Assembly: GCA_039740895.1 (NCBI GenBank)
Contig: JBCLGS010000001.1
Location: 4,013 to 68,012 of the forward strand
Length of the DNA: 64,000 bases
From: Parcubacteria group bacterium
Lineage (GTDB): Bacteria > Patescibacteriota > Minisyncoccia > Phycocordibacterales > DATDWN01
Direction: 5' to 3'
The notes under the pieces: generated by a model
Told to the model about the DNA's origin: nothing
What the model saw: only the letters and a program-made list of their open reading frames with translations
Databases searched by the model: none
Position numbers and translations under genes: made by a program
Shown: positions 20,501 through 22,282 of the stretch, in pieces
Position numbering within the stretch: position 1 is the first letter of the stretch
Layout: the number at the start of each line of letters is the position of its first letter

Positions 20501-22282
20501 CTATTCCAATATAGCTTTAATACGACGAACACCGAGAGCGACGGCTTCCTCTTTAGTTATTTTAAAATGTCCAAGCTCACCGGTGTTTGAAACATGTGGA
20601 CCACCGCAGAATTCCTTTGACCAAGCAGAGTCTAAGGTTTCTCCAACAAAGTAGATGGAAACCTCATCACCATATTTATCACCAAAAGCGTGCGATGCTC
20701 CAGTCTTTTCTGCATCTTCCTTTTTCATAACAATTTTCTGCATAGGTAATTTCGCCTGTATTTTTTCATTGACAATATCTTCCACTCTTTTCTTTTCTTC
20801 ATCTGTCATTTTTGCACCGTGATTAAAATCAAATCGAAGTCTCTCTGATGTAATGTTGCTTCCCTTCTGTGATACTTCCTCACCGAGAACATCCTTCAAT
20901 GCCTTTAAAAGTAAGTGTGTGGCTGTATGCAGTTTTTTAGTTTCTTCTCCTGCATCAGAAAGACCTCCCTTGAACATTCCAGCAGAAGAGGTGCGAGATA
21001 AATCTTGATGTTGCTTCAATTCTTCATAGAATTTTTTTTCGTCTATTTCAATTCCTTTTTCTTGTGCCAATTCTTTTGTTATTTCAATGGGAAAACCGTA
21101 TGTAGTGAAAAGGATAAAAGGACTTATTCCTTTTTCAAATTCTTTCAAGCCATTTTCTAAAGTTTTCTCAAATTTTTCTTCTTCTTGATGTAAATTACTC
21201 AATACAAAATCTTTGTTTTTCAAAAGCTCAGGATAAACATTTTTATATATTTCAATAACCACATCTCCTATAGCAAATGTGAATGATTTTATTCCCAGTT
21301 GTTTACCATACCGCACAGCTCGGCGAATAATTCTTCGAAGGACATATCCCTGACCGGTATTTGACGGAACAATTCCCTTTTCATCCCCTAAAATAAATGT
21401 AGCGGCTTTCAAATGGTCAGCAATAATACGCATTTCCTTCATATTTTCTTCATATTTTTTACCAGACAATTTTTCAATCTTTTCAATAAGTGGCCAAAAT
21501 AGCTCTGTTCTATAATTATCATTGAGGCCATTTACCACTGCTGTAATTCTCTCTAGTCCCATTCCTGTATCTACATTTTTTTGTGATAGTGGTTCAAAAA
21601 CTCCATCGAGAGTTTTATTGTATTGCATAAAAACATCATTCCATATTTCTAGCCAAAGTGAATTATCATCATTGAAACTTTCAGGAACTTTGTCTACAGC
21701 ACCTACCCAATAAAACATTTCGGAATCAGGGCCACATGGACCACTTTCACCTGCTGGACCCCACCAATTATTTTTCTTTGGAAGTTTTGCAATTCTTTTT
21801 TCTGGAATTCCGAGTTTTTTCCAAATTTCAAAACCTTCGCTATCAAAAGGAGCGTCCTTGTCACCCTCAAAAACTGATACAGCAATCTTATTTTTATCCA
21901 AGCCAAGCCATTTTGGAGAAGTCAAAAATTTATAACTCCACTCAATAGCCTCTTTTTTGAAATAGCCCGCCCGGCCGATGCCGTCCGGTTCGGACGGGTC
22001 TCCGAGTGACCAGTTTCCAAGCATTTCAAAAAAAGTGTGGTGTGAATGATCTCCCACCTCATCGATGTCTCCCGTTCGGATGCATTTTTGTGCGCTTGTA
22101 ATCCTAGTCCCTTGTGGGTGCTTTTCACCTAGCAGATAAGGCACGAGTGGATGCATTCCTGCGGTGGTAAACAGCACAGTTGGGTCATTTTCAGGTATGA
22201 GTGAAGCTGAAGGGATTATTGTGTGTCCTTTTTCCTTGAAAAACTCCAAGTATTTTTGTCGTATTTCTGTTGACGTCATCAT
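20501..22282 (-). CDS. alaS: Alanine-tRNA ligase (short form)
   Basis: FTTAGM, GNWS.GD...YFKKEAI and HTATHLL motifs. An 11-aa GC-rich insertion interrupts GDYFK. Confidence 0.93.

Follow-up and report, generated by a model that had tools for sequence, protein, structure and literature searches.

How a GC-rich palindrome comes to lie, in frame, inside one of the most conserved blocks of an essential enzyme is the question raised by alaS, the gene for alanyl-tRNA synthetase (AlaRS), in a stretch of 64,000 nt from a Parcubacteria group bacterium. This whole stretch, indicated below as the window, has a GC content of 35%, and most of its genes are on the minus strand. alaS (20501..22282, minus strand) encodes a short AlaRS of 593 aa, composed of the catalytic domain and the second additional domain, with Pfam matches to tRNA-synt_2c (PF01411, E = 3.5e-137) and tRNA_SAD (PF07973, E = 3.3e-17); the protein aligns to the E. 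coli enzyme (3HXU) with E = 6e-59 over residues 4-260. Some of the homologues sharing 68-83% identity with it are labelled Candidatus Zambryskibacteria, Paceibacterota or Patescibacteria. A preliminary description had reported a GC-rich hairpin of 33 nt within the GDYFK block, and had seen in it a small inserted element, akin to palindromes in ychF and mnmA. The analysis reported here assigns the insert to a family of palindromic elements, 36 nt long in their canonical form, dispersed in frame over many genes and over lineages of the Candidate Phyla Radiation (CPR), with a patchy distribution.

The insert in AlaRS

The reverse complement of positions 21965-21997, CCGTCCGAACCGGACGGCATCGGCCGGGCGGGC, adds 11 residues in the AlaRS frame, between GNWSLGD and YFKKEAI. 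Its GC content is 82%, versus 38% for the gene, and G or C occupies ten of its 11 third codon positions (0.91, versus a third-position GC content, GC3, of 0.29 in the gene; binomial P = 3.4e-5). The sequence itself, the GC3 and a perfect 7-bp hairpin all confirm the presence of a GC-rich, in-frame 33-nt insert in this conserved block. The hairpin, CCGTCCG-AAC-CGGACGG, features fully complementary 7-bp arms and a 3-nt loop, as originally found. It is not, however, the fold of lowest energy: the minimum-energy RNA structure (-18.1 kcal/mol) uses an outer stem of 8 bp, including one G.U pair, formed by the terminal arms CCCGTCCGA and CCGGGCGGG. The boundaries, too, differ by one base from the codon-phase ones: as an element, the insert occupies 21966..21998 (minus strand; CCCGTCCGAACCGGACGGCATCGGCCGGGCGGG), in the form CCCGTCCG-N17-CGGGCGGG, between D95 and Y107 of the protein.

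In alignments with the structures from E. coli (3HXU) and A. aeolicus (1RIQ), an 11-residue gap is found opposite the insert, and GDYFK is contiguous in most of the 120 closest AlaRS homologues. The contiguity of the block, assumed from the outset for AlaRS, holds for these sequences, while several other Patescibacteria carry inserts at the D|Y junction or no more than one residue away. In an AlphaFold2 model, residues 94-106 are in a coil with pLDDT <50, between a strand (84-87) and a helix (109-121).

The AlaRS hairpin is not isolated within the window. Perfect GC-rich hairpins of 7 bp occur four times, versus 0.13 expected from triplet shuffles, and GCCCGCCCG, with at most one mismatch, occurs ten times, versus 1.08 expected. 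When analyzed by Rfam and ARAGORN, the window matched only a LOOT RNA and one tRNA-Ala; derivation from an rRNA or tRNA fragment was accordingly dropped, the insert fitting a dispersed element instead.

A family of 36-nt palindromic elements

Metagenome contigs from JGI and ENA were scanned for the pattern CCCGCCCGACYGGA-N8-26-YCGGGCRGG, which fixes 20 of the 36 element positions and leaves the inner core free. At least 121 matches were obtained, from at least 120 stretches; all counts reported below are among the matches listed. For 95 of the 121, the free inner core is also shared, and these are considered family copies. Their consensus is CCCGCCCGACCGGACGACnCCGGTCGTTCGGGCGGG, the canonical 36 nt being described as CCCGCCCGA-CCGGACGAC-n-CCGGTCGT-TCGGGCGGG. 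Most copies (79 of the 95) are exactly 36 nt long, the others measuring 33, 39, 42, 45 or 48 nt: lengths are divisible by 3 in 92 of the 95, and the remaining three, of 34 or 37 nt, have ambiguous boundaries. The 26 matches without the core provide an internal control: they come from DNA with 51-77% GC, range from 31 to 49 nt and show no periodicity.

Copies are hosted by loci with GC contents from 27% to 66%. As many as 69 (73%) are located in open reading frames (ORFs) of at least 150 aa, a proportion to be compared with 78% for random positions in the same loci, and these genic copies fall into 51 protein clusters. Hosts identified by Pfam include IleRS-type class I aminoacyl-tRNA synthetases (aaRS), PheT (PheRS beta), transketolase, UvrA, SecA, RecG, FtsK, GatB, a class II aaRS and DnaE; exact-sequence look-ups add named hosts in Candidatus Doudnabacteria (AlaRS, OGE82124.1) and Candidatus Zambryskibacteria (LeuRS, OHB03038.1). 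Intergenic copies also exist, such as the one at 12159-12195 of locus L001, upstream of dnaK (here and below, L numbers indicate loci and P numbers proteins). No earlier description of the 36-nt element was found in the literature, searched by peptide strings and by CPR or Patescibacteria combined with palindromic, repetitive extragenic palindrome (REP) or Rickettsia palindromic element (RPE), most subscription journals lying outside the coverage; the larger phenomenon of a dispersed element appears undescribed.

Two other identities were considered for the family. A CRISPR repeat was rejected, as there is a single copy per locus, spacing is not periodic and the palindrome spans the sequence from end to end. 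As for a phage vector, viral contigs only yielded a core-less chance match of 32 nt, in DNA with 61% GC.

A few copies are found in unusual surroundings. At 1298-1333 of L142, a canonical copy lies within a 5' tRNA-like fragment (GCGCGTATAGCTCAGTGGTA|element|GAGCGCG). An element interrupting a functional tRNA, which would imply excision at the RNA level, was rejected for this locus, since the flanks make up no more than this 5' fragment and no tRNA is called there by ARAGORN. In L096, L101 and L141 another palindrome, GTCATCCCGTGCT...AGCACGGGATGAC, carries the element at its tip, and in the last two the whole nested structure is inside a membrane-protein ORF, which suggests nested or composite palindromic elements. 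Two 48-nt variants with a longer loop are found about 390 nt apart in L176, a contig with 35% GC (reverse strand, 7494-7541 and 7881-7928); similar 48-nt variants are present in L130, L140 and L148.

Family members in the window

A covariance model was built from 40 distinct sequences; its E-values are rough, as calibration was shortened. In the 64-kb window, only three loci score below E = 10, namely the copies in ychF (59.5 bits, E = 1.3e-10) and mnmA (18.3 bits, E = 0.11) and the AlaRS insert, which supports the kinship proposed for these three palindromes. In 89 kb of related loci, only the intergenic copy of L001 (E = 5e-4) and the AlaRS insert of L003 (22.1 bits, E = 0.02) are found.

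For the AlaRS insert, a global alignment to the consensus scores 34, versus a mean of 12.5 (sd 3.5) for shuffles of matched composition, 34 not being reached by any of 5000 (p <= 2e-4); the shuffle p is about 8e-4 both for the copy in mnmA and for the AlaRS insert of P0070, which is 42 nt long. Besides the arms, pairwise alignment to the consensus recovers the CCGGACG core: of the family core (CCGGACGAC ... GGTCGT), CCGGACG is present in the insert, and the 3' half is partly deleted. The insert also conforms to the family in length (33 nt, that is 36 minus 3) and has no stop in the host frame. By these comparisons of sequence, the 33 nt are best read as a diverged, partly deleted member of the 36-nt family. 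The inner hairpin is then concluded to be a derived feature, where a C-to-T change in the 5' arm allows pairing with the conserved CGGACG core.

The copy in ychF is canonical. The gene (32906..33967, minus strand; Pfam YchF-GTPase_C and MMR_HSR1) encodes 353 aa, while nearly all relatives have 329-348 aa, mostly 332-333. The element, at 33257..33292 (minus strand; CCCGCCCGACCGGATGATACCAGTCATTCGGGCGGG), adds 12 residues, has the form CCCGCCCGA-N18-TCGGGCGGG and folds as RNA at -21.1 kcal/mol (z = -4.6). Among 120 YchF homologues it is present only in this genome's own protein, which indicates that, in at least some cases, gains are recent. Another YchF homologue, P0284, features PARPPEEGAGG within a residue or two of the same site, which gives a second case of repeated use of a single tolerant site. 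A further ychF insertion, of 27 nt and also unique to this genome, is found at 33482-33508; it reads GKGTLIPGR and contains a weak AGGGA...TCCCT inverted repeat.

mnmA (24168..25586, minus strand) encodes 472 aa, versus 385-387 aa in relatives, and contains a degenerate 36-nt copy at 24212..24247 (minus strand; CCTGCCCGACACGCTCTCATGGTCGAGGCGGGCGGG), with arms CCTGCCCGAC...GGCGGGCGGG, inside an insert reading ACPTRSHGRGGRG. In an alignment of three orthologues, the palindrome is an insertion relative to that of L004. The copies in alaS, ychF and mnmA are read in three different phases.

The extra length of the mnmA product, about 85 residues with respect to orthologues, is accounted for by four insertions (especially 25078-25100, 25445-25480 and about 24320-24450). 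One consists of GCCGGGCAGGC, flanked by a 7-nt direct repeat, GAGACTT; another contains two small hairpins, GGTCG-CC-CGACC and CCCC-AGA-GGGG; another is long and not GC-rich (…RREPSARERRRFSNKENRIENNVLRKQEHFFDSSKKSPAC).

A second type of short GC-rich insert, CCCTTCGACGGGCTCRGGG, read as PSTGSG, is found in three places: the G/F region of dnaJ (900-913 of the window, minus strand), a LeuRS-like ORF at 29304-31766 (30835-30848, minus strand) and the C-terminal part of another genome's AlaRS (L003, 2867-2880). Peptides recurring as inserts at different sites of AlaRS homologues include PNPS(TGSG..), RDPERAESESKD and IEGPEENP.DKERKRI.

Secondary structure, covariation and reading frames

With a folding energy of -26 kcal/mol (z = -3.8), the canonical element forms a structure of 14 pairs with a 4-nt bulge; in the 40 distinct 36-mers, 92-97% of cells are paired. 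Two pairs show covariation over this set: at pair 11-22, 25 sequences have C-G and 11 have T-A, and at pair 15-26 the corresponding numbers are 30 and six. They belong to two mutually exclusive inner helices, one pairing 8-14 with 19-25 and the other 14-18 with 23-27. As a result of these compensatory double changes, different residues are encoded (P to L together with G to S; R to H). Stems are thus kept while the peptide changes, and this pattern of substitutions indicates selection on the hairpin, at the nucleotide level, rather than on the peptide.

The consensus contains no stop codon in any of the six reading frames, and both orientations and all three phases are in use. One reading, PARPDDSGRSGG, is dominant, accounting for 43 of the 69 genic copies. 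A target-site motif was also considered, on the basis of a preference for AAR|GA flanks, and was rejected: the preference tracks the coding strand, in phase 0 and for both orientations, and is inseparable from selection of a K...D/E surface context.

Recurrence and decay at the AlaRS site

At the identical codon junction, AlaRS from Candidatus Doudnabacteria (OGE82124.1; L147, L179, L184) carries a canonical copy, in the context NWSLGD-PARPDDPGRSGG-YWK or -DWK. The presence of this copy in another CPR lineage supports the proposal that a small element was inserted with the frame unbroken. Comparison of the filled site (GAT|element|TAT) with the empty one (GAT TAT) shows an exact gain of 36 nt, with no target duplication. 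Peptides of intermediate type, PASPDGIGQGG and PEKPDGIGAG, are found in other AlaRS fragments on searching proteins with the 77 aa surrounding the insert of Doudnabacteria; this search returned short fragments only, and is of no use as a census. A scan of contigs by the AlaRS pattern FFEMLGNW gave, among the matches listed, only distant AlaRS (51-63% identity).

Closer relatives also feature inserts at this junction. A sister clade, with 82% aa identity and represented by both NCBI and Logan assemblies (L001, L002), has a 33-nt insert, TCGTCCGACCCAAACGGCATCGGCCAGGCAGGT, and a homologous one, CCGTCCGAATCGGACGGTATCGGTCGGGCGGGC, is present in L003 (77-78% aa identity). Different inserts, such as PTSTPDG, PT, GPASTNGDSSTLGG, DTTG and DNGG, are found in other homologues at the same junction or at the adjoining residue: over several lineages, their size is 2 to 12 residues at the D|Y junction and 13-14 at its neighbour.

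Between the window and L003 (protein P0016), the insert has 91% nucleotide identity, and 82% at third positions, versus 71% overall and 42% at third positions for the host genes. A recombination tract around the insert was considered and rejected, as adjacent windows of 11 codons are not unusually similar, once conservation of the motif is allowed for.

Carriers of the insert do not group together. In a tree based on neighbour-joining only, their monophyly is recovered in none of 200 bootstraps, and P0016 clusters with insert-free homologues in 199 of 200. Distribution at the AlaRS site is patchy, and insertion recurrent. Residues in relatives at the position of the insert had been indicated beforehand as an argument against an insertion; strictly speaking they are present, yet their distribution points to patchy, recurrent insertion.

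Decay may be followed at the same site. In L001 the hairpin is no longer present in the insert (-6.1 kcal/mol, z = +0.5), whose sequence is shifting towards A+T, while still in frame; remnants of 21 nt and of 6 nt (CCGACC) are present in L004 and L005, respectively. A series is thus observed, going from the canonical 36 nt to 33 nt, to the hairpin-less 33 nt of L001, to 21 nt in L004 and finally to 6 nt in L005.

Short AlaRS of bacterial type, 53-59% identical to that of the window, are also found in contigs labelled DPANN (Woesearchaeota, Pacearchaeota, Micrarchaeota, Nanoarchaeota; L013, L020, L024, L030, L032, L037, L040, L046, L073, L075, L077, L083). This points to lateral transfer or mis-binning.

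Alternative explanations

A first alternative is that the hairpin acts at the RNA level, being removed from the mRNA, as a mini-intron or by an endonuclease and a ligase, or skipped by bypassing, so that the protein keeps a contiguous GDYFK. The location of the insert inside a very conserved motif agrees with this, a stable hairpin kept by covariation fits RNA as well as DNA, and short GC-rich inserts in AT-rich coding sequence resemble byps, the bypassed elements of Magnusiomyces mitochondria. The lengths of the copies, however, are multiples of 3 in 92 of the 95, all loop-length variants included, which is expected only if the element is read through. No stop follows a take-off codon, the consensus being stop-free in every frame; copies decayed to the point of being unfoldable, such as the L001 insert and the 21-nt and 6-nt remnants, remain in frame in intact genes; and Rfam matches in the window are limited to the LOOT RNA and one tRNA. 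RNA-level removal is accordingly regarded as improbable. Because loop-length variants stay multiples of 3 and unfoldable copies are still in frame, translation is favoured over excision or bypassing: as judged from sequence, the most likely fate of the insert is translation into a disordered loop at the protein surface, and not removal.

A second alternative places a single insertion into AlaRS in an early ancestor of Patescibacteria, followed by many independent and precise deletions, with no recent mobility at the site. Palindromes are prone to deletion, partial-deletion remnants are indeed found in L004 and L005, and related inserts occupy the same junction in Zambryskibacteria-like, Doudnabacteria and other AlaRS. 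A very large number of exact restorations of GDYFK would nonetheless be needed, given that the motif is contiguous in most of the 120 homologues. In Doudnabacteria, moreover, the copy has hardly departed from the family consensus, and 91% identity is kept between the copies of the window and L003 even though synonymous sites of their hosts look saturated, with 42% identity at third positions: an old insertion would require either a continuing constraint at the nucleotide level or a recent transfer. Recent gains do occur, as indicated by the ychF copy, unique among 120 homologues. The probability left to a single ancient event is low.

The insert might also be an ordinary loop expansion, specific to some lineages and selected at the protein level, with GC richness simply following from the codons for Pro, Gly, Ala and Arg. 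In favour of this, structure modelling gives a loop here, inserts of 2 to 12 residues are accommodated at the D|Y junction in several lineages, and a related peptide pattern, P-[AS]-[SE]-P-[DN]-G-I-G-[QR]-[AG]-G, is found repeatedly in AlaRS fragments. A value of 91% GC at third positions, in a gene with a GC3 of 0.29, is not explained, however, by the choice of amino acids. At least 51 unrelated protein clusters contain the same 36-mer, which occurs in either orientation and in every phase, and is found between genes as well; compensatory changes in the stem alter the peptide; and the insert shared by the window and L003 is far better conserved in nucleotides than the host gene. Loop expansion would require that no excess of the DNA motif be found outside AlaRS, and such an excess is already apparent. 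This explanation has very little probability.

An assembly, chimera or sequencing artefact, suggested by the odd base composition and by nothing beyond it, is practically excluded by homologous in-frame inserts, conserved with divergence at the same codon junction in independent NCBI, Logan, ENA and JGI assemblies, and by the identical protein (P0001) in a 72.7-kb NCBI contig.

Proposed origin and fate of the insert

The explanation considered clearly the most credible, and held with fair assurance, is that the AlaRS 33 nt derive from a non-autonomous, GC-rich, imperfectly palindromic mini-element, of which they are a diverged copy, translated as a tolerated loop. Such an element would enter DNA irrespective of its coding status, and might spread as a folded single strand, through transposition or homing, with the help of an enzyme acting in trans, in a way similar to that of REPs and REP-associated tyrosine transposases (RAYTs), with no target duplication. 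Genic copies would persist thanks to a length that is a multiple of 3 and to a consensus free of stops in six frames. The encoded peptide, rich in Pro, Gly, Arg, Asp and Ser, would form a flexible loop at surface turns, and the copies to survive would be those at positions able to accommodate 12 flexible, hydrophilic residues. In AlaRS, the landing site would be the turn between the second strand of motif 2 and the following helix (YFKKEAIEW); here the copy would be translated as a disordered loop of 11 residues and the enzyme, presumably still active, would remain functional. After insertion, decay would proceed by point mutations towards A+T and by in-frame deletions.

Several observations weigh against this explanation. 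The bias towards the reading PARPDDSGRSGG, along with K...D/E flanks, may reflect target specificity or selection at the peptide level. By the covariance model, the AlaRS copy of the window has a marginal score (15.2 bits, E ~0.5), with a match confined to the arms. The census is biased, both by a pattern fixing 20 of 36 positions and by covering only the matches listed. Reuse of the identical AlaRS junction in distant lineages is not what random insertion predicts, unless tolerant sites are very few, and no presence/absence polymorphism was seen between near-identical strains. No Y1/HUH transposase (Y1_Tnp) or RAYT is found among the 28 ORFs of the window scanned against Pfam. Translation of the insert, finally, is itself deduced from sequence.

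A bolder proposal is that the 36-mer is an active element, moving horizontally across CPR lineages by an undescribed mechanism, as a single hairpin with two exclusive inner helices whose pairing is backed by covariation, with no target duplication and no known transposase, and repeatedly reaching the same tolerant junctions (GD|YFK in AlaRS, near residue 223 in YchF); this is possible, but rather doubtful. If true, the 36-mer would colonise essential genes at about the density of coding DNA, would be the smallest known in-frame "protein-coding parasite" and would represent a general source of loop insertions in CPR proteins.

Proteins of CPR bacteria, or Patescibacteria, are known for odd insertions. 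The dispersed 36-nt signature would explain some of them, even in near-invariant motifs of aaRS, SecA, UvrA and DnaE, and may be used as a mask or as a marker. With it, the paradigm of selfish DNA within protein-coding genes, established for Rickettsia, would reach a second group having reduced genomes, by means of an element three to four times smaller. Its copies may provide a natural map of insertion-tolerant sites in essential enzymes, of use for protein engineering. With two alternative covarying helices and no target duplication, what recognises and moves the hairpin becomes a testable question.

Other features of the window and of related loci

Long intergenic inverted repeats, with arms of 20-32 nt and loops of 4-8 nt, are located in the window at 9969-10038, 10723-10794, 11295-11366, 11907-11951 and 59221-59266, mostly between ribosomal-protein genes. 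They form two groups: the first three are CGTATAAAATCTGGAATTGAATTGAAGACGTA-like, while the last two are described by ...GTACGGTGACAAACAAAATT.

The LOOT RNA matched by Rfam (73.7 bits) is at 36917-37032. The tRNA-Ala(TGC) is at 63319-63392, flanked by GC-rich stretches (63217-63256 and 63472-63838), which may belong to an rRNA operon cut by the end of the window. The segment 43289-52198, which probably represents a defence or restriction-modification island, encodes a protein with DUF2779 (43289-44794), another with a Z1 domain (45926-48088) and, in a stretch with 25-28% GC, an N6/N4 DNA methylase (50126-52198, plus strand).

In L005, a single call of 962 aa (1432-4320) joins domains of a serine recombinase (Resolvase, Recombinase, Zn_ribbon_recom) with those of MnmA; a fusion, the insertion of a mobile gene or an artefact of gene calling could each account for it. 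Large insertions are also present in other CPR housekeeping genes: an IleRS-type synthetase with a histidine-phosphatase domain (L139, 2886-6656), a class I synthetase with a NUDIX domain (the contig of P0006) and a DnaE with an intein (L112, 13245-14927).

Comparison with known systems

The closest analogues of the 36-nt element are intragenic REPs and the RPEs of Rickettsia, whose defining features it does not share. REPs are imperfect palindromes of 20-40 bp, with a GTAG or CGTC tetranucleotide at one end; they are thought to be mobilised by RAYTs, tyrosine (HUH/Y1) transposases of the IS200/IS605 type, and some of them are intragenic, being located in the ORFs of genes for replication and repair (Di Nocera et al. 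2013, PMC3733652). Like them, the 36-nt element is a GC-rich imperfect palindrome within the same size range, dispersed in many copies, the stem of which has a conserved asymmetry, the 4-nt bulge, and for which no target-site duplication is seen. Unlike them, it ends with CCCG and CGGG, as fixed by the search pattern, and neither GTAG nor CGTC is found in its flanks; it is not mainly extragenic, 69 of the 95 copies being in ORFs, versus 78% for random positions; and near-identical copies are found across CPR lineages, in loci with 27-66% GC, rather than in one species.

RPEs are described as repeats of about 100-150 bp, belonging to about ten families, restricted to Rickettsia and encoding a conserved peptide of about 30-50 residues (Ogata et al. 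2000, summarised in PMC10969869 and PMC3733652). The 36-nt element resembles RPEs as a palindromic selfish repeat, found in frame in many unrelated housekeeping genes of reduced genomes, where the added peptide is presumed to be tolerated on the protein surface. It differs from them in being 33-36 nt long (11-12 residues), GC-rich and hosted by Patescibacteria, with no sequence similarity to RPEs and no CGTC at its ends.

[quoted passage not shown] The two have in common a short size, a non-autonomous nature and inverted-repeat ends; in-frame fusions are also sometimes made by MITEs.

GC clusters of yeast mitochondria and the byps of Magnusiomyces, which derive from them, are GC-rich hairpins of about 30-50 nt in an AT-rich genome, located also inside coding sequence; no machinery is known to mobilise them. 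Both are organellar; byps are untranslated, and feature matching take-off and landing codons and internal stops; gene 60 of T4 is another example of bypassing. The 36-nt element shares with GC clusters and byps the nature of a short GC-rich hairpin, present also inside coding sequence. It differs from a byp in having no internal stop, lengths that are multiples of 3 and decayed copies that stay in frame. The 36-nt element is, in conclusion, classed among in-frame palindromic selfish elements.

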